Shown piece by piece: positions 3,850-62,062 of a stretch of 64,000 bases of DNA. The stretch lies in the NCBI GenBank assembly GCA_000004985.1, contig GG738870.1. One strand, given 5' to 3'. The notes under the pieces were generated by a model. It ran no database searches. It saw nothing but the letters and a program-made list of their open reading frames with translations, and was not told where the DNA came from. Made by a program: the position numbers and the translations under genes. Origin of the DNA: Naegleria gruberi. Taxonomy: Eukaryota. The stretch's first letter is position 1, and each line of letters starts with the position of its first letter.

Positions 3850-4929
3850 ATGTTCGAACATATGCCTACGCAATGCTATAACTTGCCTAAACTACAGGCT
3901 CCGCTTACCATAACAGTAATTCCTTCTCACTCACTGAAGAGGAAGAAGGAAGATGAAGAAGAAATTGACGATCATGACGAAAATAATTCTCTTATAATTA
4001 CTCCTTGCATACAAAGACAATCACGATATTCAACAGGAGTTTATTCATCTCCAACAAAAATACATTATCCATCACATCAAACCGACTGTACAATAATACC
4101 AACACATTCATCTCAAATACCAACAACAGAAGAAGGACAGCCTAAAAAATTAAAACAATATCATGAACAAACTAACGAATGCTCTACAACAGTTGCTAGT
4201 AGTAGTTTAATTATGAATTCACCATTTCAATTATTTTACAAGCCACAATTAACCGATCCATGGTTTTCAAAATTTAATATGGAAGAATGTGTTATGAATT
4301 TTAATAGATATGTAGATGACATGCATGATGTTAATGTGATCAAAATGAGTCCGCAAGAATATTTTAATTGTTGTTATGATTTTAGTTCATCTTTCAATGG
4401 ATCAGGTTTACTAAGGTTATATAGAGATCTTGGTTTCAAATCTTTCTTTGATTATAGATATTTCATATTTGTATTCTTATTTAATTTCAATACTAAACTT
4501 TCCATATCAAGAAGTGAATGGACATTTGGAATGTTCAATTTACAATGTGATAATGTACAGAAACTCAGATATCAAATTGATAAAGTTGCAGAAGAATCTA
4601 AAACATGGAACAATGATCAAATGAAGAATTTGTTCACTGTTACATTTAAAATATTGAGAGAATCTGAAAAGAGTAGATCAATTGATGCAACTGTAGCAGG
4701 ATATGCTTTGAAAGTATTAATGACAGGTAGAAGTCCTTTCACAGAATCATTTTCTAATTTTTTAATTTCATCAAATAATCCAATTAGATCAATTAATTTA
4801 GATCAATGGAAAATATTTGTTGATTTTTCATCTAATATTTCTGCCAACCTTTCAAATTATGATTCTAATGATGCTTGGCCATCACTTTATGATAATTATT
4901 TGAGTTGTTCATTCGGATTAAAATATTAA
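3850..4929 (+). CDS. DCN1-like protein (defective in cullin neddylation, PONY domain)
   Basis: The C-terminal 200 aa align to the DCUN1D PONY domain. Examples are ...LFTVTFKILRES...LDQWKIFVDFSSNISANLSNYDSNDAWPSLYDNYL against KDFYQFTFNFAK...[37 protein letters not shown]. ATG at 3850; continuous ORF. Confidence 0.75.
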   Translation: MFEHMPTQCYNLPKLQAPLTITVIPSHSLKRKKEDEEEIDDHDENNSLIITPCIQRQSRYSTGVYSSPTKIHYPSHQTDCTIIPTHSSQIPTTEEGQPKKLKQYHEQTNECSTTVASSSLIMNSPFQLFYKPQLTDPWFSKFNMEECVMNFNRYVDDMHDVNVIKMSPQEYFNCCYDFSSSFNGSGLLRLYRDLGFKSFFDYRYFIFVFLFNFNTKLSISRSEWTFGMFNLQCDNVQKLRYQIDKVAEESKTWNNDQMKNLFTVTFKILRESEKSRSIDATVAGYALKVLMTGRSPFTESFSNFLISSNNPIRSINLDQWKIFVDFSSNISANLSNYDSNDAWPSLYDNYLSCSFGLKY

Positions 4930-4952
4930 ATATATTCTTATTTATTTACAAA

Positions 4953-5915
4953 TCAGTCTTTATTACTCTTTTTAGATGATTTTTCATCTTCTTCCTGTTC
5001 TTTCTTTTTCCTTTCTTCTTCCTCTTGTTGTCTTGCTCTTTCTTCTCTCATCTTTCTCACTCTCTCCCATTTTTCATCAGCAAGCCTCTTTTCCTCGTCC
5101 TCAAATTCTTTTTCTTCCTTTTCAATTCTTGAACATAAGGTTTCTAAATCCTTTTCAATTTGGCTACTGAGCCAATCCAATCCTTTCACTATATGTTCGT
5201 CAGTCTTATTCTTCGTCAATTCTCTTTTAGCAATACATGGCAAAATGTTGAAACTGGAAACATATTCGGTCAACTCGTGTAATTGTAATCGTTCTGAAAT
5301 TTCTGAAGGCTCTAATGAATTCGGTAAATCTTGCTTATTTGCCAATCTAATTGAAATGTTAACTAAATTTTTAAATAATAGTCAAACATACAATAGGAGA
5401 GGTTTTCCTTTAAAGTATGGATGCTTTATACTGTCCACAAGTGTTTGACGAGACTCTTCCAATCTTTTTTCATCTGCAGAATCAATAACGAAAATAGCTC
5501 CGTGAATCTAATTAGATATTTGTATTCAAATCATCACCAATGAAATTAAACTTACTGATGGAAAATAATTTGGCCAAATGGCTCTAATATTTGCACCACC
5601 TCCAACATCAAAATATGTAATTTCATAATGTTCATGTTTCAACACTTCTCTGTTGAATCCAACAGTTGGCATTGGTTTAAAATCCGCATGTCCCTTAAGA
5701 GAGGCTAAGAATGTTGATTTACCAGCATTATCTATTTTGTATTTACAATTTTAATCCAATAATTAAATTGATGATAATTAAAAATACAATTGATTAGACC
5801 TTCAGAATTCTAATTTCTTCTTCTACTCACCCAAACCAATAAGCATCACCGTTATTTTCAACTCATCCTTCTTCTTCTTCCCGAATCCGAATAAATTCTT
5901 AAAGAGTGATAACAT
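4953..5915 (-). CDS. ARL13: ARL13-type small GTPase (ARL13B orthologue with C-terminal coiled-coil tail)
   Basis: Four exons on the minus strand: 5831..5915, 5556..5731, 5392..5507 and 4953..5346. Introns are 5732..5830, 5508..5555 and 5347..5391. The spliced protein reads MLSLFKNLFGFGKKKK...GLDNAGKST...PTVGFN...DVGGGANIRAIWPNYF...VIDSADEKRL...LANKQDLP...GLDWL... followed by an E/R/K coiled coil. Switch II carries GGG instead of DxGGQ, the ARL13 hallmark, and the protein is collinear with human ARL13B including the C-terminal REER-rich coil. Confidence 0.8.
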
Positions 5916-20600: not shown

Positions 20601-22033
20601 TTACTTTTGTTCTTCGAATATTAAATTTTCGTCTGTTTGCAAATATTTGGCATCTCCTGTTAAAGCAAAAGCAGAGTGATTAGAAGCAATTACTCTTAAT
20701 ACTGTTTTGTCTGCCAAAATGGCCAGTTTTTCAGGATAATCAACCATCTTGGCACTGTCTTTACCTAGGCCAGTTTCACCATATCTTCCTTTTCCAAAGA
20801 CAAAAACTTCTCCTTTTTCATTTACAACATAATTACAGGTTTCTGAACAGGCTACCCAAACAATTTTTTGTGAACTAAAGAAATGGTTTCTATATACAGT
20901 AAGGTCGTTTTTCTTTAAAATATACTTTCCAGTTAAATCCAAATTTTTTTCAGAAAGAGATCTTTCAGAATCCACAAGGAATGGCTTGTGAATTATATTC
21001 TCATCGCTTAATTCAAGATTTTTCAATAATCTTACATAACCAGCGTTATCTAAGGTATAACCCCAACAGTAAACACTTCCATCGGATGTTCTAGCAAGAG
21101 CATGATTAGTACTTGCTGCTACTTGCACAATTCTTCTTCCATTTAAGGAATGCATTAATAGTGTTGGAACTGTCATAATTTCGCGTTTGTCATCTCCTCC
21201 AGCAACATTTTTACCTCCCCATTGATAAACTGAAAGATTGAAGCATTGGTATCATGTGATACTTAAATTGTTTACATACCTTCATATGTTGAACTTAGGG
21301 CAACATTTACATGCTCCTTGGTGGAACAGGAGGAACAAAGCCACTCAATATCTTCAATCTTCTTAAAATATGGTTGGTCTGCAAAATCACCATGGCCTAA
21401 TTGTCCAAAAGATCCCAATCCAGCTGTATAAATCTTTCCTTTTCCAGTTATTAATACAGTGTGTCTTGCTCCACAAACAGCCCTTCTTATTTTTCTAGAA
21501 ATCATTTGATCCACCAACACTGGTTTTGACATGTTAGTGTTATGACCCAAACCTAATTGATAATTGAAATTGGCTCCACAAACATAAACTCTTCCTTTAT
21601 GAGTAAGGAACACTGTATGCCTGTCTCCACAAGAAACATTAACAATATAATCATCCACAACATCAAAAACCACTTTCTTTGGTGTTGGGGAATCCTCAAA
21701 TGATCCTATTCCCAACTGTCCATTTTGATTCCTACCAAATGCATACACATTACATTGGTCTGTTACTATAACTGTATGACTGCCACCAGAACTAACGTGG
21801 GCAATCTTTTCTCCTTTGACGAGGAAACTTTCTTGCTTCATTCTTGTTGGCTGTGATACAAAATTAATTAATTCATGTTCATTAAATGCACCCTCAACAC
21901 CTAGTTGATTGTTATTCATTCCCCACGAATAACATTCATCAAATTCATATTTTATGATGGTATTTGAAGCGGAGGGAGTTGTTGTATTGAGGCTTTGCAT
22001 TTTTAAAGCTTTTTTTTTAAAGTTTGGCGCCAT
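20601..22033 (-). CDS. RCC1-repeat protein
   Basis: Exons 21280..22033 and 20601..21229. Intron 21230..21279 (GTATGT..TTCAG) preserves the frame. Repeated motifs of the type YSWG.N...QLG, GG.HT and Y.FG.N..GQLG.G match RCC1 blades. Confidence 0.75.
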
Positions 22034-22316
22034 TTGTAATTAGCGCTAAATTAAAATACAACACAACCCTTCTTCATTTGGAAGCCTCATAAACCGAATC
22101 AGTTAGTGGCTTTCTCCACAATTTTTGAATTGATGCCAGATCGTGAGATGAAATTTTAAGGATTTGGCACTTGAAAAGATTTCAAAGTTGGCTCAATCTT
22201 CAGCTAATTATCAAAAGATTGTTGTTTGATTTCTTCTAGAAAACCCAATTTTTTTAAAGATAACAACTGTTGGTCTACTTATTCTATGCAATTTTTTAAA
22301 AGATATTAACGTGAAG

Positions 22317-22388
22317 GGACCATGGTCTAGTGGTATGATTCTCGCTTTGGGTGCGAGAGGCCGTGGGTTCGATTCCCACTGGTCCCCG
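22317..22388 (+). tRNA. tRNA-Pro (anticodon UGG)
   Basis: 72-nt cloverleaf. Acceptor GGGACCA pairs with TGGTCCC. The D-arm and anticodon arm are TGATTCTCGC-TTTGGGT-GCGAG, and the loop TTTGGGT places TGG at positions 34-36. The T-arm reads GTGGG-TTCGATT-CCCAC and the discriminator is C. A T-rich stretch (CATTTTATTTTG) follows at 22392..22403 as a Pol III terminator. No CCA is encoded. Confidence 0.9.
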
Positions 22389-24183: not shown

Positions 24184-25430
24184 ATGAGTTCTGTTCGGTC
24201 CTATCCAATTAATGGAGGTGTTGGTGAGCAGGATTACGTGATTCATCTGACCATTCCTGATAGTGTGCTTTCGAACATTGTACAAAATCCTGACCAATTA
24301 AGTTTGAAATTCACATCGGATCCACTTGATAATGATATTGTAAGTTTATTGACTTGTGATGATTTTAATTGTTGTTGTTATTATTGTTGTAGAAATTCGA
24401 ATTTTCGTTTGGTTCTAACAAGATGGAATTATCAGCAGCATCAAAGAATGAATGTCCTGATCTTTATTGTTTGTCTGATAACAAATTTGAACATATAGGA
24501 ATGATTAAACATCGTGCAAATTTAAATTTGGATATGATGAAAGGGAGGGCTCCTAATCCACCTACTCTCACAAAGTCAGGTTCAAAACAATTTGGAAGTA
24601 AAGGTAGTAATTTAAATATAAGAACAGATAGAAAAAAGATTAGTGCATCATCGGCAAATCCTGATTCCATTGCTGCAAAATTCAGGAGAGATGTAGATTC
24701 ACCTGTAGTAATGAGAAAAACAGTTAGTCAAGCGAGTACATCATCAAATAATGAACAACAATCATCAAAACAAACAGAAAAAGTATCAAATAGTCAGTCA
24801 TCATCACAAGCATCAAATGTTATGCCCGAATCACCAAGATCAGATATGGATTCATCACCTATTCGTGGAGATGATTTCGGAAATGATTCTATGCCAGTTT
24901 CACCTTCCAATGAAGAAGAAGTGGAATCTAAGAATGAGTTTGATAGAACAAGTTATCCTCACAAACCACCTGTAAAAGCTAGACCTACAAGTAGTACATA
25001 TACAGTTAAAGTAGGAACAAAACAATTGCAAGCATTTAGTTTATTAACTGTTGCTATTGGTAGTGGAATTACTATTGGAGATACAACTGTAAAGCGACCT
25101 AACATTTCAAAAATTGAAACTTTTGAACAATATAACCAATACAAGAAGGAATTTAATGAGAACTACAAAAAATACAAGGAATTGGATAAAATACTGAATG
25201 ATAATGTAGAATACTTTAAGGGTTTAGCTAGTGAATGGAAAACACTTCCAAATGATGAAAAGACTGAATCCAACAATGAGATACAAAAACTATTTAACAG
25301 AAGAAAAACTGATGTTCAAACACTTACAAAAAAGTTTAACGCTATGCATGAAGAGTTAGATTGCATAAAGAAACTTTTGTTGGAATATGCCACTAGAAAT
25401 GCATCCAATGGAAAATCGAATGACATATAA
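24184..25430 (+). CDS. hypothetical protein: N-terminal beta-rich region, Ser-rich linker, C-terminal coiled coil (weak EAF-family resemblance)
   Basis: Exons 24184..24339 and 24393..25430. Intron 24340..24392 (GTAAGT..TTGTAG) is in frame. No confident domain assignment. Confidence 0.4.
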
Positions 25431-26557: not shown

Positions 26558-28892
26558 ATGGGAGGCATTGTAGCATCGAAACCGACTATTAATCTCTCAG
26601 AGGAACCTCTCACTACACTAGTGGATCCAACCTTCCCGAAATTGTTGTTTGATCACTTTGATAAGGTTACTGATTTTTTCAATGATAAGATTGCTGAAGT
26701 TGAATGTTTTGAAAAAGTAGTGGAGAATTACTCTCATTACTATCACAATATTTATGATATTCATTCTTTTAAAAAAAAGTTGCAGTAAGTGGGTAATATT
26801 GAGGAAATTTAATGACTAATTTGTTTGAATTAGAAAAACCGAAAATGTTCCATCACATTTGGATATTTGCCGTAAGGTTGCTCAAGGATTCGAAGATTGT
26901 GGAAAGGATTATTATAAAATTTATGAAGATTTGGATTCCATTTTGACAAAAATTAGGTTGTTGAAAATAACATTAAAGGAATATGTAAATAGTGCAAAAG
27001 TTGAGGAAACAAATTTGAATTATGAACTGGAAAATGCTAACAAGGATGTTGAAAATTCAAAATTAAAAGAAACCAAATTAACATTATCAGTAATTGAGGC
27101 CCAATCTGAGAACGACCAACCTAAGGTTGACCGACTTCAAATTCAATTGAAACAAGCAAATTCTGACACTGAAAGTTTTGAAAAAACTTTTGAAACTATC
27201 AACAATCAAAGAAAGAGGAAACTAACCAACATTCTGACTCATCTTGAAATAATGGAAAAGAAGAGGTTTATAGAGCTCAAAGAACTAGCTTCGAATTTCT
27301 CAAAAGTACAATTCGATGTTCTTGAATTTGAATCCCATACAACTGAAACATGTGAAAAAGGAATTGATGATATTTCAGAAGAATCAGAAATTAAATATTT
27401 CATTGCAAAATGTACAAAGGGAGATATTAATCAAATCAAAGATGATGTTCCAACTCCAAAAATTCAAATTGCACAGATAGCCTATTTTAACAAAATTCTT
27501 TCTGACCCAGAGGATCCAGACAAGGTTGATTTGGGTGTTTGGCTGAAAAACTCTAGTGACAAAGTTAAAGAGGAAATTGAATCAAGCAAACCCTTTACTG
27601 ACTCTGAATTTCCACCAAATCACAATTCCGTCGTGGGTTTACAAACAATTACGAAGAGATTAGATTTAACCTGGAAGAGAGCTACTGATGTCTACAAGCA
27701 ACTAAAATTTGGAGAGTTTTCACCAGACAATATAGCTCCAAGGAAAGGTGACTCATGGTTACTTTCATATCTGTACTGTATTGCCCAAAAACCAGAATTG
27801 GTTTCAAAATTATTTTCAGTCAACGAACTTAACACTGCAGGAATTTATGAGGTAAATTTATGTGTTGGTGGAGAGTTTACTAAGGTAATTATCGATGACC
27901 ACTTCCCTTTCGATAAAGATAATGTTCCACACTTTGGTGCAAGCAAGAAGGAAGAGCTTTGGGTACCTCTAGTAGTGAAAGCTTTTGCAAAGGCAGTTGG
28001 ATGTTTTTTGAAATTGGAGGCAAACTTTTATTATCTTGGATTTCAAGTACTCACCGGTTATCCAAATTATGACATTATATTCAATGATACAAACTCAAAG
28101 AAACCTTCCTTCCTTGATGCCTGTTGGACAGCAGTTAACCAAGCACCAAAGAAGGGTTATTTGATTAATTGTTTCTCAAGATTTGATGTTGATAAGGGAT
28201 TAGATCCATCAGCTTCTTATATAGTTCTTGACAGTTATTCAAAAGACGATGTTAAATTACTTCAACTTGCAAACCCATGGAAATCAACTCAATGGAATGG
28301 GGATTGGAATGATTCAGATCCAATGTGGACAGAAGAGATGAAGTCTTTAGTTAGTTTCAAGCAAGATAACGAACGATCTTTCTGCATGGCATTCTCTGAC
28401 TTTGTCAAGTGTTTCTCTCATATTAATATTTGTAGATACAATCCTTCATTGAAAAGAAAAACACTTTCAGTTCGAGTTCAGCAATTAGAAAATAATGTGG
28501 AGAACGAATATCCGGTCATTGAGTTCAGTTTCTCAACAGATTCAAATGAATGCTACTTTGGAATTCACCAACTTCACACAATATTTAAGGATGCACCATT
28601 CTCAAATTCAGTTATGGGATTTGTAGTTGTAAATAAGGAGCAAGCCAAAGAAGTTACCAAGTTCATTACAACAACCACTGAGAAGGAGTATTCATTACAA
28701 AAGAATTTGAAAGCAAACACAGTTTATCAGTTAGTCCCTCTACTGTTCCAAAAATTGGCAGATCTTAAAAAGATAGTGATAAGTGTTCAGCAAGCAGACG
28801 AAAAGTTTAGTTGGAAATTGCTAGAAAAATCTCAAGTTATTATTGGCAAGCAAGAAATGACAAAAGCCCAGTTAAAAAAGATGGTTTATTGA
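26558..28892 (+). CDS. calpain-like protein: N-myristoylation motif and coiled-coil N-terminal half fused to a CysPc-type calpain domain that lacks the catalytic Cys and His
   Basis: Exons 26558..26784 and 26834..28892. Intron 26785..26833 (GTAAGT..ATTAG) is in frame. N-terminus MGGIVASK. Calpain domain markers: FTDSEFPPNHNSV (compare FvDpeFpp), GDSWLLS in place of the GDCWLL active-site Cys, ...EVNLCVGGEFTKVIIDDHFP, ...ELWVPLVVKAFAK, SASYIV in place of GHAYSV (His lost), and LANPWKSTQWNGDWNDSDPMW (Asn/NPWG retained). Confidence 0.7.
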
Positions 28893-31837
28893 AGAGAGTA
28901 CTTCTCTTTCTCTGCTAGCAGTCTCAATTTTTCAGCAAATTCCTTTTCCAATTCCAATCTTCGTTCTTCTAATTCACATAACACTTGCAATACATCATTA
29001 TTTTCATAGCTGGTATTGGAATCAACAAAAGATTTCATGAGCATTACCTTTTTGTCTTGCTCTATGACAGCCATTTTTTGATCTTCATACTTTTGTAATG
29101 CAAAAGTTCTCCTAGGTTTGACAATAAAATCATTTTCAGTAAAGCTAGAGCTAATGCCTAAATCATCTCTTGTTCTCTTCTTTTCATGAATTGATCCTCT
29201 GTTCAGTAAATAATTACTGAAACCATCAATAGAAGATTCCAAACGTTCTTGCTTATTAAATTCATAGGTTTGAGGATTGTTTTGAACTATGGCTTGTTCA
29301 ACAAGTAACTTGTTGTAGTATTTACCAATCTTGATAACATAGTTCTTCAACTTTTTGAATGCCAAGGTCATGAATTCTGGTGAATTATCAGTTAGTAAAG
29401 AGTCACCAATGTCTAGCACTTTGTAATCTTCAAAGTAAAAATCTTGTGTTACAGCTGTGAAATTCTTTCTCATATTTGATACATAAGGTTCCATACGATG
29501 CTTCTCCATATCATTCTTAGTGTAGTACAATAAACAGTACAAGTAAACACCAGCCATAAAACATGGAACAAGTTCCTTAACCTCCAAATAGTACAAAATA
29601 TAATTGATATCGTTGGTAAGGAAAACCTCTTTCAAATTAATTTGAACATTTCCAACGAGTGTGCCCACAGTTACAGGGGTGCCATCAAAGGCCAGATTCA
29701 TCAATGCCTCCAAAGTATCAATATTAATTGGAATATTACTCTTACTTTCAACAATTGAAAAATAGCCCCTAGAATAAATCAAACCAAGAAGAACAGCCAA
29801 ATAACTTGGATGCTCATTGACTATTGGTTCATAATTCAACCATCTTTCTATTGAGGATTTGGCCAAATTTTTTACAACTGATTCATTGAATTTTAAGAGG
29901 TCAAATCCATCCTCCTCTTCAATCTTTGGTGTTTGGATAGGTTGACTTGGTGACTTTTGATTGGTTTTCTCAGAAACTACATCAGAAGTTTCATCCATAG
30001 CCGAACTGCTTGGAGTAAAGTTGTTGACAACATTTTTAATGTCTTTCATGACATCTAATGGTTGTGTGACAACAGCGTCTGCAGCATCTTGAACACTTGT
30101 ACAAAATCTTGTAATAGGTTGATAATGTGAGTGAAGTAAATCATCCAACTTGAGAATGGAATGATTATTCAAAAAGTCATGATATTCAATTGGTTTAGAA
30201 ACATCACAAATAACAGGTTCTCTAATGAGAGGAAGTTTCTCACGACCTGCCTTCTTTCTAAAACCAAATCTAACTTCTTGAACAAAGGCCTTATCGAATT
30301 GAGCTGTTTCATCAGCAGTTACACCAAAGAATGAATTACCAGATTGTTTCAAAAAGCTTTCCTTGTTCATTCTGTAGGCAATAATGAAACCACAATGTTT
30401 CACTAAATCAGCACTGCACTTTCTACCATAAGTTCCAATAGCAATTTGTGCACTGTAATCTTGTGGATTGACTGATTGTGAGTAGAATGTTTCCAAATGT
30501 GTTAAAACTTCTCTCTTTTTTGATGAATTTTCACAGAATACTACAAATCCAAAAATTGCAATTTCATTCAAATTAAGTTTTGGAATGAGTTTTTCAATTT
30601 CATTGCATTGATACATTCTATTTTGTGTCATTTGGAAAATTGAATTTGTAGGATTTTGATTCAAGAAGAGTTTCAATGTTACTTTTGCAGTTTGAACATT
30701 GTAACATACAGGAAAACCTGCGCGTTGTTGATTAATTTTACCATTTAAAGTTGCTTTAGAAACTGCAGTTGGAGGATAGGCACTCATTGAAGCACTTGAA
30801 GAAAAGAAGGAGGAGAAAACATTTGGTTGTAAATGTTGTTGAGAATATGAATGGGTTGTTTGATCAACATTTTGTTGCATTAAATTATTTCCTGACAGTA
30901 ACAAAATTGGATTGTCATTATAATTATTTGTTGCATTTGATTTATCTTGAAGAAGTGAATTAATTGATTGTGGAGGAAGCATTTGTGTGGAGGATGAATT
31001 TGAAGAAGGAGGTGATGATGAAAGATTTGAATGTTGAGGTGTTTGCACCAATGTGACAGTATTCATCAATTGAGTTAATTGATCAGGAGTTAAACCATTT
31101 GGTGATCCATAATTACCTAAATTAGGACTTGTAGAATTAACTGGTGATGGTGTATTCAAGTGATTTGGTGAATAGTTTGGATAAAAATCAAAAGTACTAT
31201 TGTAATTATTGTAATTATTATTATTTAAACTATTTAAAGCTTGATGATTCAAATTAAATTGAATATTTTGTATCAATGATGACAAATTATTGTTATTATT
31301 ATTAGGATAATCAGTTAATTGTTGTTGTTGTTGTTGTAATAATTGATAAATAGCATTAGTATTATAAATAGTAGTATTATGATGATGTGGTTGAGTAGTA
31401 CCACCAACAGCACCAGTATTATACATTGATTGTGCTTGCTGTTGTTGAATGGTATGATTATTAGGTTGACCACCATTAATCATCATATTCGAATTATTAG
31501 TAACAGTAGTAGTAGCAGTAGTATTATTGGATACTACTAGGGAAGGTGATGATGAAATCATTCCTCCAACAATACCAACACCACTACTTCCCACCACTGA
31601 TGATGATGGTGCTGATGATGATGATGATGGAGTGTTTGCTGACGATGATGATGATGGTGTAGTATTGCTCATAACAATGTTATTAGTAAGTACTGCTGCA
31701 GTTGTATTATTATTATGATGATGATTAGTACCTCCAGAATTCAAAACAACGTGATGAGGTATAACAGTTTGTGTTGTTAATGAGGATGGTGGTCGTTGAG
31801 TTTGATTTGAAGTAGTGGCTGTGGGTGGTTGATTCAT
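28886..31837 (-). CDS. Q/N/S/T-rich low-complexity protein with a structured C-terminal 550 aa; function unknown
   Basis: ATG at 31837..31835. The N-terminal 430 aa are homopolymer-rich (polyQ, polyN, polyS, HHHNNN). The C-terminal part has no assignable domain. Its 3' end overlaps the 3' end of the convergent calpain-like gene by 7 nt (28886..28892). Confidence 0.5.
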   Translation of the reverse strand: MNQPPTATTSNQTQRPPSSLTTQTVIPHHVVLNSGGTNHHHNNNTTAAVLTNNIVMSNTTPSSSSSANTPSSSSSAPSSSVVGSSGVGIVGGMISSSPSLVVSNNTTATTTVTNNSNMMINGGQPNNHTIQQQQAQSMYNTGAVGGTTQPHHHNTTIYNTNAIYQLLQQQQQQLTDYPNNNNNNLSSLIQNIQFNLNHQALNSLNNNNYNNYNSTFDFYPNYSPNHLNTPSPVNSTSPNLGNYGSPNGLTPDQLTQLMNTVTLVQTPQHSNLSSSPPSSNSSSTQMLPPQSINSLLQDKSNATNNYNDNPILLLSGNNLMQQNVDQTTHSYSQQHLQPNVFSSFFSSSASMSAYPPTAVSKATLNGKINQQRAGFPVCYNVQTAKVTLKLFLNQNPTNSIFQMTQNRMYQCNEIEKLIPKLNLNEIAIFGFVVFCENSSKKREVLTHLETFYSQSVNPQDYSAQIAIGTYGRKCSADLVKHCGFIIAYRMNKESFLKQSGNSFFGVTADETAQFDKAFVQEVRFGFRKKAGREKLPLIREPVICDVSKPIEYHDFLNNHSILKLDDLLHSHYQPITRFCTSVQDAADAVVTQPLDVMKDIKNVVNNFTPSSSAMDETSDVVSEKTNQKSPSQPIQTPKIEEEDGFDLLKFNESVVKNLAKSSIERWLNYEPIVNEHPSYLAVLLGLIYSRGYFSIVESKSNIPINIDTLEALMNLAFDGTPVTVGTLVGNVQINLKEVFLTNDINYILYYLEVKELVPCFMAGVYLYCLLYYTKNDMEKHRMEPYVSNMRKNFTAVTQDFYFEDYKVLDIGDSLLTDNSPEFMTLAFKKLKNYVIKIGKYYNKLLVEQAIVQNNPQTYEFNKQERLESSIDGFSNYLLNRGSIHEKKRTRDDLGISSSFTENDFIVKPRRTFALQKYEDQKMAVIEQDKKVMLMKSFVDSNTSYENNDVLQVLCELEERRLELEKEFAEKLRLLAEKEKYSLQ

Positions 31838-35722: not shown

Positions 35723-37619
35723 CTATTTCCTCATGAGTTTATTGAATCGATTGAGGAGAAGATTCTTATTGGAAGAGGAAGAAGGACTGGTTGAAAGAGT
35801 GGGTTGAGTTTGTTCGAGTGAGTTTCTTGTTGGACTGTTGGTGGCAGAAGAAGATGATGATGCATTGGTTTCTCTTACTAGCTCTTCAAATTCCTTTTCT
35901 ATGGCAGCATCTATTTGTATCTCCTGGTCTTGATTTGATGAACTGTCTGAGAATGTGGTTATGTGTAAAAGAGCTGTCTTGATTAGTGAAATAGCATCCC
36001 AATGAGTGTTATCGAATAGGAATATCGTCTTGTTGTTAATGTCATGGGAAAAATCTATTGCCAAATCAAAGATTGCATATATAGAAGAAATGTTTGCTTT
36101 GAGAATAATGTACATGATTACTGGAAGGAGTTTTTGCTCGTAATCTCTTTCTTGAATGTGCTTTACATGCTTCTTTACAACTTCAGTAAGCATGTAGTAT
36201 ACATCTTTGCAAATAATGATTTTGTCACTGATAATTTCCTTCTTGGTTATTTCCTTAAATTTGCTAATGATTGGTTGATATTCTCCCTCTAAACAGAGGT
36301 CATATTCTGCGCCTAGATCAACAAGAGACAACCCTCTGAGTTCAGAAATTCTTTTACAAACCAGTTTGGCTTCATCTTTTTGCATATATAGCTCAGTTAA
36401 CTCTTTTTCAATTTTGGAAACAACTGCTTGGCAAATCACACTATAGAGTACATTCTTGTGTTTTGAAAGGTGTGGATAATGCTTCCAAGAAGATGCTTCA
36501 GTAAGGTGCTGTGTCAAATTTACACAAAACTCCTTTACATACAATGCTGAAAAGTCAGGTGTTATGAGAGACATCTCTGAGGAGCTGAATTCATTTCTAA
36601 ATTTACGAGTAAAGCTTTCGAATACAGAAGAAAGAGGGTGATTATCCATATTTTCAATGTTGAGTATATAGCCCAATAAAAAGTAATATAATTCTTGCTC
36701 TTCATGAATATTTGATAATTGTGCAAGCCAGTTCTTTTCATATTCCTCATTTTCATATGACATTTTGTGTTCATGATAATTTTCCATAATGAATTGAATC
36801 CACAATGTATCACATCCATTACTTTTCAATATTTCTTTAGGTCCAACATCAAAATACTCTTCCATTATTTCATTTTCTGAAATTCCAGGTCCATCAACAG
36901 TAACATTCATATTTGATTGTTCTAATTCTTGATTATAATAAGTGGCTCTAAGTGTATCAATATCAAACAATTCCTTTTCAATTTGTTCTCTAATTTTACT
37001 CTTTTCTTGGAATTTTCTTTTCATTTTCAAATAATTCTTTTCATTTCAATTAATTTATCCATTCAATAATTTTACTTACATCTCCACTTTGATTTGATTC
37101 ATTGATTTTTTTCACTAATTCTGCTTGTTCGTTATCTAATTTAATTAATTTTAATCTTGTCATGTTAAATTGATCATTTAACTGGTCAATTTGTGAATTA
37201 AATACTTTCTCTTCATGATGTTTTACAATGCCAAAATATTCTGGTCTCTTTTGTGATGATAATGTTGCACCAACATTAGATGTACCAATACTAGTAGAAG
37301 TAGTTGGATTTTTAACAATATTTAACAATGCAAGTACTCTTTCAGTACACTTTTCATAAATCATTTTCAAACTAGCCAATTGATTCACTGACAAGTGTTG
37401 AATCAACTCTCTAGATTGTAAAATTGATCCGATCGATTGCACAGCCAAACCATAATGTTGTAAAGCCTCCAAAGGCTGCAAATTACCTTCCTCTAATTTT
37501 AATCCCAAATGCACTTGTTCATAAATTTGTTTTAGATATTGATCAATAATAGGTCCCGATGATGATGGCGTTGATGAAGATGGAGAGGAGTAATTGTGTT
37601 GTGGTTGTTGGGAGGACAT
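35723..37619 (-). CDS. VPS9-domain-like protein (putative Rab5-family GEF)
   Basis: Exons 37080..37619 and 35723..37036. Intron 37037..37079 (GTAAGT..AAAAG) is in frame. The region ...EQKLLPVIMYIILKANISSIYAIFDLAIDF...HWDAISLIK resembles the VPS9 catalytic-core helices; assignment is moderate. Confidence 0.5.
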
Positions 37620-40242: not shown

Positions 40243-41508
40243 ATGGCTGAAAACAAGAAGCGCCTCTATTCCCAAACTTTTGATAGTCAACAAGAAGAAA
40301 CGGCATTAGATGAAACCTCCTCCGATCTAACAACCTTTCTTATAAACCACTACAATTATTCGAATCCCTCTTCCAGTGATGAAAGCAATCATTCTAACCC
40401 CTTTCTCAAATATCGTAAATTATCTAATGTTGTAATCAAAACAACTTTCAAGGATTTTTATTTAAATGATTTTATTGCAAAAAGAAGCGGGCTTTTAAGA
40501 AAGATGATTGATTCGAATAGTGAGTGGAATTTAGGTAAAGATGAAGAAGGAAGATTTATTATTGATTTGTGTCAAGTTCAAGATTCAATTGTGAGCAAAG
40601 ACGAAATTTTGGAAGAATCTGATTTTGAAATTATTTTCAAATATTTGTATTCTGATAAAATTGATGAACGGATTTGTGTTGGTGAAAATGGGGATTTCGA
40701 ACAGGCAAGGAGAATTGTTCAGCTCACAAAATATTTTGACATGAATTACATGTTAAAATCAATGTTGGATAGGAATAGTGGATTAATGGAGGATTTTTGT
40801 AGAATACAAGTTAAATCTTGGATGGAATTCAAGTTGACTGAAGAAGATTACTTTTTATTATTAAGATCGATAGAGGGAGAACAACCCTCAATAGAGCTTG
40901 CCAATTTAATATGTCAAGAATCAGAATTTCCATTTGATTGGAAATGTTATGTGTTAATTGAAGCAATCAAGACTCAAAATGGAATTGATGATATTAACCA
41001 GATTACAAAAGAAATGTTACAACCTGTTGAAAGGTCAATTGAATACATCAAGAATGAATCCAAGCGTGTTATCAAAGGTGGTCATTTTTTTACTAAACAC
41101 AAACAAATGGCTGAAATATTAGGAATACAGAACGAGGAAATAGATTACAAATCACTTCATTTAATCAATCAAACTACCCAATTTACACAATATTACAGTA
41201 CTTATTTTGAAAAAGAGCACCATTTTGAATTATTTGGTGGTGGGTTGAAAGTTTCTATTGAGAAAGCTGGAAGTCAATCATGGAACTATTTTCTTTCGAA
41301 AAATTTTGGTAATCAGGATGACAATGTTAAGGTAATATTCTATTACACAGTAGATGATGGCAAGACAATCAAAAAGGAAAGCTTTTTTTCTAAATATTGC
41401 AGGTGCGATTTTGATCTTGATAATGAAGAAGTGGTGTTTGGATTGTTGGTAATTTTAAATGTTCATGAGGGAAGGAAATCCACTAAAAATCCAACTTGCT
41501 TCTTGTAA
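40243..41508 (+). CDS. hypothetical protein (421 aa, no confident domain)
   Basis: ATG at 40243; continuous ORF. Confidence 0.4.
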   Translation: MAENKKRLYSQTFDSQQEETALDETSSDLTTFLINHYNYSNPSSSDESNHSNPFLKYRKLSNVVIKTTFKDFYLNDFIAKRSGLLRKMIDSNSEWNLGKDEEGRFIIDLCQVQDSIVSKDEILEESDFEIIFKYLYSDKIDERICVGENGDFEQARRIVQLTKYFDMNYMLKSMLDRNSGLMEDFCRIQVKSWMEFKLTEEDYFLLLRSIEGEQPSIELANLICQESEFPFDWKCYVLIEAIKTQNGIDDINQITKEMLQPVERSIEYIKNESKRVIKGGHFFTKHKQMAEILGIQNEEIDYKSLHLINQTTQFTQYYSTYFEKEHHFELFGGGLKVSIEKAGSQSWNYFLSKNFGNQDDNVKVIFYYTVDDGKTIKKESFFSKYCRCDFDLDNEEVVFGLLVILNVHEGRKSTKNPTCFL

Positions 41509-47488: not shown

Positions 47489-49149
47489 ATGAGAAAAAAC
47501 ATCCTTCAAATTGGACGCACCCTTGGTAACAAGAAGGTTGCTGCTCCTTTACTTCTTGCCACACAAACTCATCAACAAGAAAGTAACTTCTCAACAATCA
47601 ACAATACACAATTACATGGTGGATTGAAAGATAAGGACCGTATTTTTACAAACTTGTATGAAAACTTTGATAGACATATTGATGGTGCCATGAAGAGGGT
47701 ATGTATTATTGTACTGTTGAATAACATTAAATTGCGTTGTCTATCTATTTGAACAATAATAATAACAATACTCTCAACCATATATTCATTTAATAACAAT
47801 TTGTATTACAATGATGATATCTTTAAAACAAAATAATAATATTAATAATAACAATAACAACAACATCATGATGATAAATTATTAAAATTATATAATAATG
47901 ATAACAATAACAATAGGGTGATTGGTTTAAGACTAAAGATTTAATCAACAAAGGACCTGACTGGATTATTGACCAAATTAAAAAATCAGGACTTAGAGGT
48001 CGTGGTGGTGCTGGTTTCAACTCTGGTTTGAAGTATTCTTTCATGCCAAAGTCTAATCCTGATGGACGTCCATCATACCTTGTTATTAACTCTGACGAAT
48101 CCGAACCAGGTACTTGTAAGGATAGAGAAATTGTTAGAAATGATCCACATAAATTAGTTGAAGGTGCTCTTTTGGTCGGTTTTGGTATGAGAGCTAGAGC
48201 TGCTTATATTTACATTCGTGGTGAATTCTACAATGAATCAAGAAGATTGCAAGAAGCCATTGATGAAGCCTATCAAAAGGGTTTCCTTGGTAAGAATGCA
48301 TGCGGAACTGGATATGAATTTGATGTATATGTCCATCGTGGTGCTGGTGCTTATATTTGCGGTGAAGAAACTGCTTTAATTGAATCAATTGAAGGTAAGC
48401 AAGGTAAACCAAGATTGAAGCCTCCTTTCCCTGCTGGTGTTGGTTTGTTCTCTTGTCCAACTACTGTCACCAATGTTGAAACTGTTGCTGTCGTTCCAAC
48501 AATTTTGAGAAGATCTCCTGAATGGTTTGCCGGTTTTGGTAGAAAGAATAATGCTGGTACCAAACTTTATGCTATTTCTGGTCACGTTAACACTCCTTGT
48601 GTTGTTGAAGAAGAAATGAGTATTCCATTGAAGGAACTTATTGAAAGACATGCTGGAGGTGTTCGTGGTGGATGGGACAATTTATTGGCTATCATTCCAG
48701 GTGGTAGTTCAGTTCCACTCATTCCAAAGGAAATTTGTGAAACTGTTCTCATGGACTTTGATGCTCTCAGAGAAGTTCAATCTGGTTTGGGTACTGCTGC
48801 CGTCATGGTTATGGATAAGTCAACTGATATTGTTGATGCTATTGCTCGTCTTTCTAAATTCTATGCCCATGAAAGTTGTGGTCAATGTACTCCATGTAGA
48901 GAAGGTACTGGTTGGTTGTTGAACATGATGGACAGAATGGTTAAGGGTAATGCCGAAATTGAAGAAATTGATACATTGGAAGAAGTTTCTCGTCAAATTG
49001 AAGGTCACACAATTTGTGCTTTGGGTGATGCTGCTGCTTGGCCAGTGCAAGGTTTGATTCGTCACTTCAGAGGTGAAATGGAAGATAGAATTAAGAAGTA
49101 CAAGAATGCTGAAAAGGCTAAGAGAGCTAGAAATCATATTGTTCATTAA
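47489..49149 (+). CDS. NDUFV1: NADH dehydrogenase (ubiquinone) flavoprotein 1, complex I 51-kDa subunit (NDUFV1/NuoF)
   Basis: Exons 47489..47698 and 47917..49149. Intron 47699..47916 (GTATGT..CAATAG, 218 nt) is in frame. Motifs include [24 protein letters not shown]...[10 protein letters not shown], and the FMN/NADH site [32 protein letters not shown]. The Fe-S ligands [12 protein letters not shown] are present. Confidence 0.9.
47760..47930. repeat. AT-rich microsatellite (aat/aac units) inside the NDUFV1 intron
   Basis: Runs of (aataac)n and (aacaat)n, for example ...aataataatattaataataacaataacaacaac... This explains why this intron is four to five times longer than the others. Confidence 0.6.
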
Positions 49150-52613: not shown

Positions 52614-53969
52614 TTATTTCTTATTGATTTGATTCAAAATTCTATTTGCATTTTCATGTCCTGCCTCAGCTGCCTTTGTTATCCATTCAAGAGCTTTTCT
52701 ATCGTTTCTTGGAGTACCCTTACCTTGAGCACACAAACATCCAACATTATATTGTGCATCGACATAGTCATTTTCAGCTGATTTCAGATACCATTCGTAT
52801 GCCTTATCAAGGTCTTCCCTTTCTGCATAAATTGCTCCCACATTATATTGAGCTACTGGATTTTCTGAGACTTGAGAATACCATTCGAGTGATTTGTCCA
52901 AGTTTCTTTCAACCCCCATTCCCTCCTGATAGATGAAGCCAATATTAAAGATGGATTGTGGTGATTGTCCACTGTGAGCAGCATTCAGGAATAACTCCAA
53001 ACTCTTCTTGTAATCTTTTTCTACGCCTAAACCAAATAAGTACATTTCTCCAAGAAATTCCTGAGCTAATGGATGACCCTGATTGCTTGCGTTATTCAAA
53101 TGTTCAAGAGATTTTTCAGTATTTGTTTCAATACCATTACCATAGTGATACATGAGACCGAGTTGGAACTGTGATTCTGCATCTCCATTCTTTGTAAACC
53201 AATCAAATGCTTGTTTTGGATCCTTTTCAACACCTTGCCCATGTAAAAGCATGAATGCAACAGTAGATTGTGATTCAGGTACACCATTTTGAGCTGCTTT
53301 AGAATGCCATTCATAAGACTTGACATAATCTTGTTCACATCCGGTACCATAATAGTACATGAATCCTAATTGTTGCTGAGCTTTGGCATGTCCTATTTCG
53401 CCAGCTTTTGTAAAATTCTCAATTGCATTTTCAAAATTTTGACTTGTTCCTCTTCCATTATAAAAAGCTAATCCAACATTAAACAAAGCATCCCTAACTC
53501 CCTTCTTTGAAGATTTTAAATACCAGTCAAATGCCTTCTCCAACTCTCCTTTGCTTTCATAAATATATCCAAGATAACATTCAGCTTCCAAATAATTTAA
53601 TTCATGTAATTTCTCAAAATATTCAAGTGATTTATCCAAATCTTGTGCGAATTCTTCTCCCAATCCAAGCAAGTACATATTTCCCAACATGAATAAAGCA
53701 TCCACATTATTATCACGAGCTGATAGTTCAAATAATTCTTTGGCTTTCGGAATTTGATTCTGACGTAATAACAATAAACCTTGTTGATAGGCTTGGATAT
53801 GATTTTGAATATTTTCATTATTCGCTTGTCCTGATTGATTATTATTCTTCTGATTGATGTGAAAGCTTCGGAGTGATGAAATTGTTTTTCCACAGGTAAA
53901 AGGTATCAAAAATCCATTCTTTCTATGATGATGGATTGAAAATATTGCCCTTGTGATCAATTTGTTCAT
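52614..53969 (-). CDS. Sel1-like repeat (SLR) protein, possible mitochondrial presequence
   Basis: ATG at 53969. At least nine tandem repeats of about 36 aa follow the Sel1 pattern (A...LG.MY..G.GVE.D..KA..W..KAA..G...AQ). Confidence 0.7.
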   Translation of the reverse strand: MNKLITRAIFSIHHHRKNGFLIPFTCGKTISSLRSFHINQKNNNQSGQANNENIQNHIQAYQQGLLLLRQNQIPKAKELFELSARDNNVDALFMLGNMYLLGLGEEFAQDLDKSLEYFEKLHELNYLEAECYLGYIYESKGELEKAFDWYLKSSKKGVRDALFNVGLAFYNGRGTSQNFENAIENFTKAGEIGHAKAQQQLGFMYYYGTGCEQDYVKSYEWHSKAAQNGVPESQSTVAFMLLHGQGVEKDPKQAFDWFTKNGDAESQFQLGLMYHYGNGIETNTEKSLEHLNNASNQGHPLAQEFLGEMYLFGLGVEKDYKKSLELFLNAAHSGQSPQSIFNIGFIYQEGMGVERNLDKSLEWYSQVSENPVAQYNVGAIYAEREDLDKAYEWYLKSAENDYVDAQYNVGCLCAQGKGTPRNDRKALEWITKAAEAGHENANRILNQINKK

Positions 53970-54049: not shown

Positions 54050-55381
54050 TTAAAATATGAAAGAAATATCTGATAATGGTTTGCAGTTTGAACTTTTAAG
54101 AGATGATTTGAAATTGTCAGCTGTTGAGCCATCAAAAAGCTTGTCATCTCTGTAAAATATTGTGTGCATTCCTCCACAAGCAACTGAGTTAATGTGAAGA
54201 TCTTGATGCTTACTAAAGTCAATTCTCTCAAATGTTGATAGCTTATTTAGGGATGAAATCACATTACCAGAATTTCTGAAACCTCTTCCAGTTCCAAACA
54301 TTACATTTCTATTCTTTTTAGAAATAGCAATAGTGTAATTATCTCCCAAGAAAACATCCCCAATAAATGTATCATGAATGTAAACTTGTGTGAATTTGTA
54401 ATATGTATTAATGGTTGGTAATCCAAGTTGTAGCTCAGAATTCTTTCCTGTCATGAACAATTCACCATCGACTGTCAATACAGCACTGTGCTTTTCACCA
54501 CATACAACTTTTGCAATTCGTGAGGTAGAAGGTATGTCAATCTGCTTAAATTCATTGAGAATAACTACATCTTTACCTGCTCCAGCCATTCCATTTCTAT
54601 TGGATCCGATAGCAAAGAGACGATCTCCCTTCTCATCGCTAACAACTATCAATGAATGATCTTCACCAAATGCCCATTGAGTAATCTTCTCTGATGGTTG
54701 AATAAACTTCTCCATTCCCTTCATTCTTCTAAAAATGTTAATATTATTGTTGTGATGTTGAGCTCTTTCAACACCCAACTCATCAAAATTATTCTTTCCA
54801 GTGCAATAGACATTTCCACTCTCACAAATCAAAGCAGTATGATCAAAACCACAAACAACCTTCGCAATAACTTCATCATTTCCATCATCTTGTTTTAATA
54901 GCTTTAAAGGAACTGGATTAGGAATTGTAACCTCAATCCAATTTTTCAATCCAGATTGGCCATTACAATTATCACCCCATGCAGATAACTTATTATCCTT
55001 AGACAAAGCCATTGTAAAATTAGAACCACATTCAATTGCTTTAATCGAACCTAAACATTTAAAATCCCTAATAACTTTCAAATCAAATGATTGCATTGTA
55101 TTAATGGATTGAGCCAATTGTCCCGAATTATTAGACCCTGATGAGAGAATACAATATTGACTATCACTCTTACTATCCCTTCCCACTACAATGGTATGAA
55201 AGTATCCAGTACGAATACATTCAAGGGAGAAACCACTCGGGAGGGAAACTCTAGCCATCTGATCTAATTTTCTAATCATTGAATCACCAGTTGCTAACTG
55301 ACCAAATTCATTATTACCAAATGAAAGAAAACAAGATCTTTGAGCATCTTGATTGTAGTGGCAGTTATTGCTTGAGGACAT
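54050..55381 (-). CDS. RCC1-repeat protein (second copy in this window)
   Basis: ATG at 55381 (MSSSNNCHY...). Repeated blades of the type FGNNEFGQLATG, SGSNNSGQLAQS, WGDNCNGQSGL, GSNRNGMAGAG, GKNSELQLGLP and CGGMHT. Confidence 0.7.
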   Translation of the reverse strand: MSSSNNCHYNQDAQRSCFLSFGNNEFGQLATGDSMIRKLDQMARVSLPSGFSLECIRTGYFHTIVVGRDSKSDSQYCILSSGSNNSGQLAQSINTMQSFDLKVIRDFKCLGSIKAIECGSNFTMALSKDNKLSAWGDNCNGQSGLKNWIEVTIPNPVPLKLLKQDDGNDEVIAKVVCGFDHTALICESGNVYCTGKNNFDELGVERAQHHNNNINIFRRMKGMEKFIQPSEKITQWAFGEDHSLIVVSDEKGDRLFAIGSNRNGMAGAGKDVVILNEFKQIDIPSTSRIAKVVCGEKHSAVLTVDGELFMTGKNSELQLGLPTINTYYKFTQVYIHDTFIGDVFLGDNYTIAISKKNRNVMFGTGRGFRNSGNVISSLNKLSTFERIDFSKHQDLHINSVACGGMHTIFYRDDKLFDGSTADNFKSSLKSSNCKPLSDISFIF

Positions 55382-55546
55382 TTTTTTGTGTTTTCTTAGT
55401 TTCAAATTTGAGAACAGTGAACTCTTTGAAAATGTTGCGTATTTTACGAATGAACAATGAAATGTTGATGATTTTAAGATGATTGATTGTTGTAGAAACT
55501 TTCTGTTGAGTATGTTAGATGTGATGAGGAAAGATTGAACAATTTA

Positions 55547-60293: not shown

Positions 60294-62062
60294 CACCGAG
60301 TAAATTTGAGATAAATGATGAAACCTATTGTGGATCATTTTTTTTGTGTTTGTCGTTGAGAAGATTCTGTTGGTTTGTGGAGTGAAATGGAAATTGGCGT
60401 GTTTTTTGTAATATTCCAAAAGAATCCACAATGTGTGGCAAAAACAATAAGGAGTCCTTATACTTCTAATCTCATTGGAAGAGGATAACAACAAGCAGTT
60501 TGTGCACGTCTATGCTGTTGAAGCAGAATCGATTTCTAGTACAGCTTTGCTTTAAGTGAGCCGGAACAGAGAGTCACATCATCACGGCTAACAATTTTGG
60601 ACCCTTTTGCATTTTCATCATCATTTTAGATTAAAATTCCATCCTTATTATTAAAGGGAAATTAATGTTCGTGTTGTATGTTGCAAGCGCAAATCCAAAG
60701 GCATCAAAATTTGCTAAGGAAATCAAACCATCATAATTATGTTCTTAGTGAGTTGGAATTGAAAATGTCATGAGATATAATTCCTTATTGTTTTTAATTT
60801 GCATTCATAACCTTGGGAGTGATGATTTTGTGATCATTGGTATGAGCCTTATCCAGAGATTTGCCACTACTGTGCAATATGGATCACTCGCAAATTTCGT
60901 CCGCCAAGCGATTTGACTAATTTGGGTATGATTCCCGGTTTACTTTTGTTCGTCATTATAAAACATCTTTGAACCAACAAAATCAATGTCTTTTTACTCT
61001 CCAAAAAAATTCTACAATCAGAATACATCTTTAAAAGTGAAGATTCTAGTGTCTATCTTCTCACTGTTCTGTAGAGTATTCATATCATCATCATTAGCTT
61101 CAAGGAAGTTATTGTCCTAATAGTTCTCTTTAATAGAACCATTTAGTTAGTACTTGGGAAAAAGCCTTTAGAAAATATTTTGCATATTGGACACGAAGAA
61201 GTAATTGCTATTATTATTCTGATATTTTCATCATTTACTGATTAAAACAACAATTGCTAGAGTCTAGCTGAAACTATTAGTAGTAGTAACAGAGGAAAAC
61301 ACCACTCATCATCCAATAGTTCTACCACCCTAAAAGTAAAAGATAGCACTCATCAAAGTCTTCCAAAAGAGTATTGCTGCTATTGGTCCATAATACTTTT
61401 CTAATTGTAAGTATTTTAAATCTAATGAATTGATTGAATTTGTTTTTCTTGCGAACACAACCATCCTTTGAATGATCTATACTTGGATATCGATATATAC
61501 CAAACCAAACAACTCAACTGCAATATTTGGAACAACAATTTCAACATACAATGCTAATATCACGATGACTATCATAAATTACATCATCATCGCGTTGTTG
61601 TTATTATTGATAATCATCTATTAATTGTTAAACATCATCAACATGTCCCTCCGTTAAATAATGCCACGAAATGGTTTTCGTTTTGTGTCTTTATCAGGAT
61701 TAATTTGGAAAAGAACACAAAAAAAAAGAATCACAAACGCTCATTATTAACACTCCCAAAACAGCAAGAACAAGCACTATCGTGAACAACAGTTGACGTG
61801 AAGTTGAAATTGCCTCTTATCAGATATATTGGCTACCATCATCAAATACCAATTTTTATTCTTGTTGGAATTTTACTTATCAACAATATTGTGTATTTTA
61901 ATAGCGTTCTACTTTGTACTATTTACATTCTTGTTTGTTGTAACATTTACTATCATCAAACAAGCAGATTAATTTATATTAATAATTTTGCAAGCACTTG
62001 TGGCTGAAACTAATACTTCTGTCTAGTACAGTTTTGAACGATCGTTCTATATTTTGAAACAA

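Follow-up and report, generated by a model that had tools for sequence, protein, structure and literature searches.

The gene located at positions 4953..5915 on the minus strand of a 64,000-nucleotide stretch of Naegleria gruberi DNA (hereafter the window) has a complete model, and its 256-aa product falls in the Arl13 clade, displays a Gln-to-Gly change in switch II and has a predicted fold that superposes on Chlamydomonas Arl13B. Since sequence, phylogeny, diagnostic residues and predicted fold all agree, it is virtually certain that this gene is an ARL13 orthologue, as an earlier note drawn from the DNA letters had claimed. The gene is, moreover, already in the published record. Indeed, the FASTA supplement of Vargová et al. 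2021 (Genome Biol Evol 13:evab157; PMC8358228) holds an entry '>NgrArl13 [Naegleria gruberi]', and the spliced product is identical to it, letter for letter, over 256 aa (strings compared by eye). Both are the same gene from the same organism, with no difference. The corresponding table entry, XP_002676849.1, is assigned to the class Arl13 by IQ-TREE (PMC8358228).

As the identical sequence was catalogued as Arl13 in 2021, the finding was already known. The database names of the protein are 'hypothetical protein' in GenBank and 'ARF/SAR family small GTPase' in UniRef; as the GenBank label is still 'hypothetical protein', a renaming to ARL13 is justified. Beyond this correct annotation, the significance of the gene is slight. 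Globally, the best explanation is very probably that the gene is the known ARL13 of N. gruberi, with a flagellar role suggested by work on the Chlamydomonas and human proteins.

Gene structure and family assignment

The gene (4953..5915, minus strand; NAEGRDRAFT_68064 / XP_002676849.1 / 'NgrArl13') comprises four exons, all features given below being on the minus strand. It starts with an ATG at 5915 and ends with a TGA stop codon whose last base is 4953, so that the limits given in the earlier note were exact. Exon 1 (5831..5915) encodes the N-terminal segment MLSLFKNLFGFGKKKKDEL, which is devoid of Gly2 and of Cys, followed by the beginning of beta1 and the P-loop. Intron 1 (5732..5830; 99 nt, GTGAGT...TAG, phase 1) interrupts the P-loop codons, GLDNAGKS being encoded over 5837-5715. 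Exon 2 (5556..5731) encodes the remaining P-loop, switch I (KPMPTVGFN, 5678-5652) and switch II (DVGGGANIRAIWPNY, 5609-5565), in which R78, W81 and Y84 are conserved. After intron 2 (5508..5555; 48 nt, GTAAGT...TAG), exon 3 (5392..5507) encodes the middle of the G domain, i.e. beta4, alpha3 and the beginning of beta5. After intron 3 (5347..5391; 45 nt, GTATGT...TAG), exon 4 (4953..5346) encodes the guanine-specificity motif NKQD (5339-5328), the remaining G domain and the kinked alpha6 helix (residues 176-191 and 193-255, 5198-4959), and ends with the stop codon. This helix includes the segment EKWERVRKMREERARQQ (5075-5025), the counterpart of residues 212-228 of Chlamydomonas reinhardtii Arl13B (CrArl13B). 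The three introns are all GT..AG and have a GC content of 0.18-0.23, versus 0.35 for the exons; retention of any single one leads to a premature stop, at codon 31, 97 or 129.

The comparison with ARF-family profiles and the phylogeny proposed in the earlier note both lead to ARL13. The product matches the Pfam family Arf (PF00025) with an E-value of 1e-42 and 146 bits (cut-off 22.3); Pfam matches are to GTPase families only, with no further domain type, and the P-loop GLDNAGKS and NKQD are both intact. When all PDB chains are searched, the best matches are the Chlamydomonas ARL13B chains 5di3_B and 4m9q_A (1e-53, 185.7 bits), and the phmmer alignment with 5di3_B spans residues 20-247 of the product, charged tail included. 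ARF1 (117 bits), ARL2 (~111) and ARL3 (~103) score 68-83 bits lower. At the sequence level, the match to Pfam Arf and to Chlamydomonas ARL13B is therefore well above chance.

The phylogeny was obtained by neighbour joining (NJ), a simple method, from 46 sequences, 181 G-domain columns and 300 bootstraps. It included curated human, Trypanosoma brucei and N. gruberi sequences of the ARF family, database matches and the CrArl13B chain. The product lies within an Arl13 clade (95% bootstrap) with human ARL13A/B, Chlamydomonas Arl13B, T. brucei Arl13 and Andalucia ARL13B. Every Arl2, Arl3 and Arl6 is found outside this clade, as are Arl1, Arl5, Arl8, Arf1 and Arl16. As the gap filter removed the columns specific to the Arl13 tail, this result concerns the G domain only. 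The heterolobosean Arl13 sequences form their own subclade, with which T. brucei Arl13, the other studied orthologue from Discoba, groups with a bootstrap of 57%.

The switch-II substitution pointed out in the earlier note, DVGGG, is indeed present at residues 70-74 (5609-5595), within the switch II DVGGGANIRAIW, Gly74 being found where the catalytic Gln is expected. None of the 27 aligned Arl13-like sequences has a Gln at this position; most have a Gly, the others having Ser, Asn, Pro or Gln-free variants. Four residues, G73, R78, W81 and R199, are invariant across the 27 sequences.

The AlphaFold2 model of the product, built from the 27-sequence alignment, has a mean pLDDT of 91 and predicts, after the G domain, two helices at residues 176-191 and 193-255, with pLDDT >90. 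When this model is compared with the PDB by Foldseek, CrArl13B chains (5di3_B, 4m9q) take the first four places, with target-normalised TM scores of 0.92-0.94. The aligned columns number 194-205 for CrArl13B versus ~170 for other Arf or Arl structures.

It could be argued that the resemblance to ARL13 is superficial, the protein being a divergent paralogue of ARL2, ARL3 or ARL6 in which the switch-II Gln was lost independently, since G-domain identity is 30-40% across the whole Arf family and NJ over 181 columns is a simple method. The probability of this is minute. The clade supported by a 95% bootstrap holds no Arl2, Arl3 or Arl6, the lead of CrArl13B over ARF1, ARL2 and ARL3 is large, and both the alignment and the fold match continue through the Arl13-specific alpha6 helix. 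Furthermore, bona fide Arl2, Arl3 and Arl6a/b genes are separately present in N. gruberi, and the published IQ-TREE assignment is also Arl13. This explanation is thus effectively refuted. An identity with ARL2 or ARL3 proper was likewise rejected, as the product has Gly74 instead of Gln, has a 67-residue helical extension and lies outside the Arl2/3 clade.

Host genome and genomic context

The earlier note had described the genomic context of the gene as dictyostelid-like, i.e. Amoebozoa-like. This does not hold. The product matches NAEGRDRAFT_68064 of N. gruberi with 100% identity and 100% coverage, its next relatives being proteins from N. fowleri (87% identity), Willaertia magna (74%) and Acrasis kona (49%). 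Four other complete ORFs of the window (24423-25430, 28886-31837, 40243-41508 and 52614-53969) also encode exact N. gruberi proteins, and these ORFs and the ARL13 gene belong to one common 418,085-bp N. gruberi contig. N. gruberi belongs to Discoba (Heterolobosea), not to Amoebozoa. The dictyostelid-like impression arises because the genome is compact, with ~30-35% GC and short introns.

The amoebae of N. gruberi turn into biflagellates within ~1 h, a differentiation during which basal-body and flagellar genes are transcribed and translated de novo (PMC4819266). RABL2, a cilium-specific GTPase, has also been reported from N. gruberi (PMC4736243). As this classic amoeboflagellate forms its basal bodies and flagella de novo, the presence of an ARL13 is expected. 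One alternative offered by the earlier note was a flagellated stage in an organism with an Amoebozoa-like gene structure: the flagellate stage is real and long documented, but the Amoebozoa-like gene structure has to be abandoned, the host being Naegleria. With a host known to form flagellates, a ciliary GTPase is no longer puzzling. The gene does point to a flagellum builder as the source of the window; the expectation that it would be informative for the taxonomy and biology of its source is, however, not borne out, as the flagellate host was known, the gene had already been classed as Arl13 and no surprise is left.

The Amoebozoa-like impression, due to AT-rich DNA and short introns, is also the sole argument for regarding the gene as a contaminant or as recently acquired by horizontal transfer into the genome of an otherwise non-flagellate amoeba. 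This is refuted, its probability being negligible: the flanking ORFs encode exact N. gruberi proteins on a single 418-kb contig, the composition of the gene is that of the window, and orthologue identity falls as expected from Naegleria to Willaertia and Acrasis, within a heterolobosean subclade.

No gene encoding IFT, BBS or dynein proteins was found by Pfam among the 30 ORFs of at least 150 aa in the 64-kb window. As this sample is small, the absence of ciliary neighbours says nothing about the whole genome and gives no contextual support. The products of these 30 largest ORFs are of ordinary eukaryotic types and include, according to Pfam, a DCN1-like cullin-binding protein, an ABC ATPase, a Cid1/TUTase-like nucleotidyltransferase, an ELAPOR1-like receptor, Med13, RCC1-like proteins, an ELL/occludin-domain protein, a calpain, a WH2 protein, an importin-5-like protein, NDUFV1, an F-box protein, a Sel1-repeat protein, a lipocalin and MTHFD.

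The upstream neighbour of ARL13 in the window is the DCN1-like gene (3850-4955 region, plus strand; Cullin_binding PF03556, 1e-18). The last base of its stop codon is 4929, and the stop codon of ARL13, on the opposite strand, occupies 4953-4955, leaving a gap of 23 bp. With 23 bp between these convergent stops, the 3' UTRs of the two genes must either overlap or be extremely short. The sole tRNA gene of the window is a tRNA-Pro (anticodon TGG; 22316-22387, plus strand), flanked by an RCC1-like gene and a short ORF. RCC1-like domains are encoded at two loci, 20601-22033 and 54050-55405, both on the minus strand; the first is a pair of adjacent ORFs (191 and 253 aa) that probably correspond to one intron-split gene. 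At E<=0.001, Pfam gives no match for three large ORFs, at 28886-31837 (minus strand, 983 aa), 35723-37030 (minus, 435 aa) and 40243-41508 (plus, 421 aa). The products of two of these are identical to the N. gruberi 'predicted proteins' NAEGRDRAFT_79911 and NAEGRDRAFT_68080, which are singletons at 90% identity in the protein collection. The complex I 51-kDa subunit NDUFV1 (Complex1_51K, SLBB and NADH_4Fe-4S), which is nuclear-encoded, is found at 48028-49149 (plus strand); as this ORF begins within the FMN-binding domain, an upstream exon is likely. Lastly, an ORF of at least 658 codons (62027-64000, plus strand) continues past the end of the window. It starts with a low-complexity region rich in His, Pro, Ser and Gln and coincides with the strongest skews of the window (GC skew -0.35, AT skew +0.17).

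Arl3-exchange residues and the putative Arl3 partner

C. reinhardtii Arl13B (PDB 4M9Q, 5DI3) is a structurally and biochemically characterised Arl3 guanine nucleotide exchange factor (GEF), with which the product has ~40% identity over 227 aligned columns. Both proteins display DxGGG, a kinked alpha6 helix after the G domain, and the helix segment ERxRKxREER; the loop before beta6 differs by 4 residues. The CrArl13B mutational data of Gotthardt et al. 2015 (PMC4868535) were mapped onto the HMMER alignment. The positions in common are F54, N76, R78, W81, Y84, R199, K218 and R221 (product numbering), which correspond respectively to F53, N75, R77 (Joubert R79), W80, Y83, R194 (Joubert R200), R213 and R216 of CrArl13B; the residues are kept, the change from R213 to K218 being conservative. 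Three interface positions of CrArl13B differ, D46, F51 and K210 being replaced by K47, V52 and A215. In CrArl13B, K210 was assayed solely within the double mutant K210E/R216E, and the helix segment 212-228 is necessary for GEF activity (PMC4868535). This segment is closely conserved, being EREERLRKQREERLRQQ in Chlamydomonas and EKWERVRKMREERARQQ in the Naegleria product. Globally, the residues tied to Arl3 exchange or to Joubert syndrome are largely conserved, with K47, V52 and A215 as exceptions. Two residues of CrArl3 contacted by the alpha6 helix of Arl13B, E103 and D143, are replaced by Gly and Asn in the Arl3 of mouse as well as in that of Naegleria; these contacts are therefore specific to Chlamydomonas and uninformative here.

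Human ARL13B, the Joubert syndrome GTPase, belongs to the same NJ clade as the product and resembles it in several respects. Both display DxGGG, a similar N-terminal motif (MFSL... versus MLSL...) and the helix motif ERVRK[LM]REER, and the product has counterparts of the residues at the Joubert positions R79, W82 and R200.

The genome of N. gruberi also has NgrArl2, NgrArl3, NgrArl6a/b and NgrArl16 (tabulated in PMC8358228). Compared with the PDB, NgrArl3 scores 216-218 bits against mouse and Chlamydomonas ARL3 and 178 bits against ARL2; judged from its sequence, it is a true ARL3. Arl13 thus co-occurs with its substrate Arl3 in N. gruberi, a flagellum builder. Arl3, Arl13 and Arl16 are all absent from the heterolobosean Neovahlkampfia (PMC8358228), and such a joint loss is the pattern expected from a coupled ciliary module.

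By analogy with its characterised relatives, the likely function of the Naegleria protein is GTP-dependent nucleotide exchange on Arl3 within the flagellum. As suggested by the Chlamydomonas and human proteins, GTP-bound Arl13 would use its alpha6 helix and both switch regions (I and II) to bind Arl3, on which it would catalyse nucleotide exchange. This would limit an Arl3-GTP zone to the flagellum, where lipidated cargo would be released from its carriers. As the catalytic Gln is missing, Naegleria Arl13 would hydrolyse GTP very slowly and stay GTP-bound. Such a role would count only in the transient flagellate stage, during de novo building of the flagellum.

The short heterolobosean form and its site of action

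The basic/acidic coiled-coil tail described in the earlier note is found in the product as a highly charged helical tail: K, R, E and D account for 70% of residues 190-256, and residues 193-255 are predicted to form a single long helix. Human ARL13B, a 428-aa protein, is palmitoylated at C8/C9 and carries a VxP motif for ciliary targeting together with a long Pro-rich tail, whereas the 256-aa product has none of these. Indeed, no Cys is found in its first 25 residues, Gly2 is also absent, the tail is devoid of Pro, and no VxP or RVxP motif occurs anywhere in the sequence. In agreement, the published tables predict no myristoylation, palmitoylation or extra domain for NgrArl13 (PMC8358228). The product stops shortly past the alpha6 helix, whereas Chlamydomonas Arl13B has a coiled-coil plus Pro-rich extension that is presumably ancestral (PMC8358228). 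The T. brucei protein, with DLGGG and no palmitoylation, resembles the DVGGG form of Naegleria; it is targeted to the flagellum by an N-terminal DD_RI_PKA docking domain (PMC8358228), a domain that Pfam did not find in the Naegleria product.

An N-terminal palmitoylatable Cys is missing from about half of the Arl13 sequences, and the tail of 11 out of 70 is not the canonical, presumably ancestral or animal-type Pro-rich one (PMC8358228). The N-terminal Cys and the Pro-rich/VxP tail are thus not defining features of Arl13. As the survey already records such absences, those observed in Naegleria are a known kind of variation rather than a novelty.

The heterolobosean-type homologues, from Naegleria, Willaertia, Acrasis and metagenome or transcriptome sequences (alignment A1), are uniformly short (220-277 aa). 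They share a Cys-free N-terminus, M[LFI]S[LF]F.N[LF]F, and the Pro-rich tail is absent throughout. The Acrasis kona protein (P0009, from outside the window) lies in the Arl13 clade beside those of Naegleria and Willaertia. To our knowledge, no flagellate stage has been described in Acrasis, an aggregative heterolobosean. The genome paper of A. kona makes no mention of flagella, cilia or IFT, and the title of a 2025 phylogenomics study speaks of 'cryptic flagellate stages' in Heterolobosea.

These observations raise the question of whether a genuine ARL13 could have its main site of action, or a second one, outside the flagellum, for instance in amoebae. The product lacks the animal-type signals of ciliary targeting and lipidation (N-terminal Cys, Pro-rich tail and VxP), its short form is common to all the heterolobosean homologues, Acrasis kona has an Arl13-clade protein, and the survey cites extraciliary ARL13B signalling in mammals (PMC8358228). 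Such a site of action is nevertheless improbable, since N. gruberi builds flagella, has Arl3 and Arl6 in the same genome, and Arl3 and Arl13 are jointly missing from Neovahlkampfia. Furthermore, with so many Arl13s being Cys-free or deviating in their tail, and with T. brucei using the DD_RI_PKA route, the missing animal signals are no argument against a flagellar localisation.

If the protein acts in the flagellum, as preferred here, its short form, which has none of the known Arl13 devices for membrane attachment or targeting, bears on how it gets there. It is possible, though doubtful, that the heterolobosean Arl13 is a minimal form, made of the G domain and alpha6 and devoid of a lipidatable Cys, a Pro-rich tail, VxP and a docking domain, that either reaches the flagellar membrane by an undescribed route or acts as a soluble protein. 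Were this true, the N-terminus of the product, MLSLFKNLFGFGKKKK, a conserved hydrophobic stretch followed by a polybasic one, would be one candidate device for holding the protein at the membrane, a soluble Arl3 GEF being the alternative. The hydrophobic moment of this N-terminus is modest (0.40, versus 0.66 in NgrArf1a) and therefore does not support a strong claim of an amphipathic helix. Under the same assumption, the Arl13 of Acrasis kona could mark either a cryptic flagellate stage or a non-ciliary role. The synchronous de novo assembly of flagella in Naegleria would make it a convenient system in which to address the targeting of Arl13.
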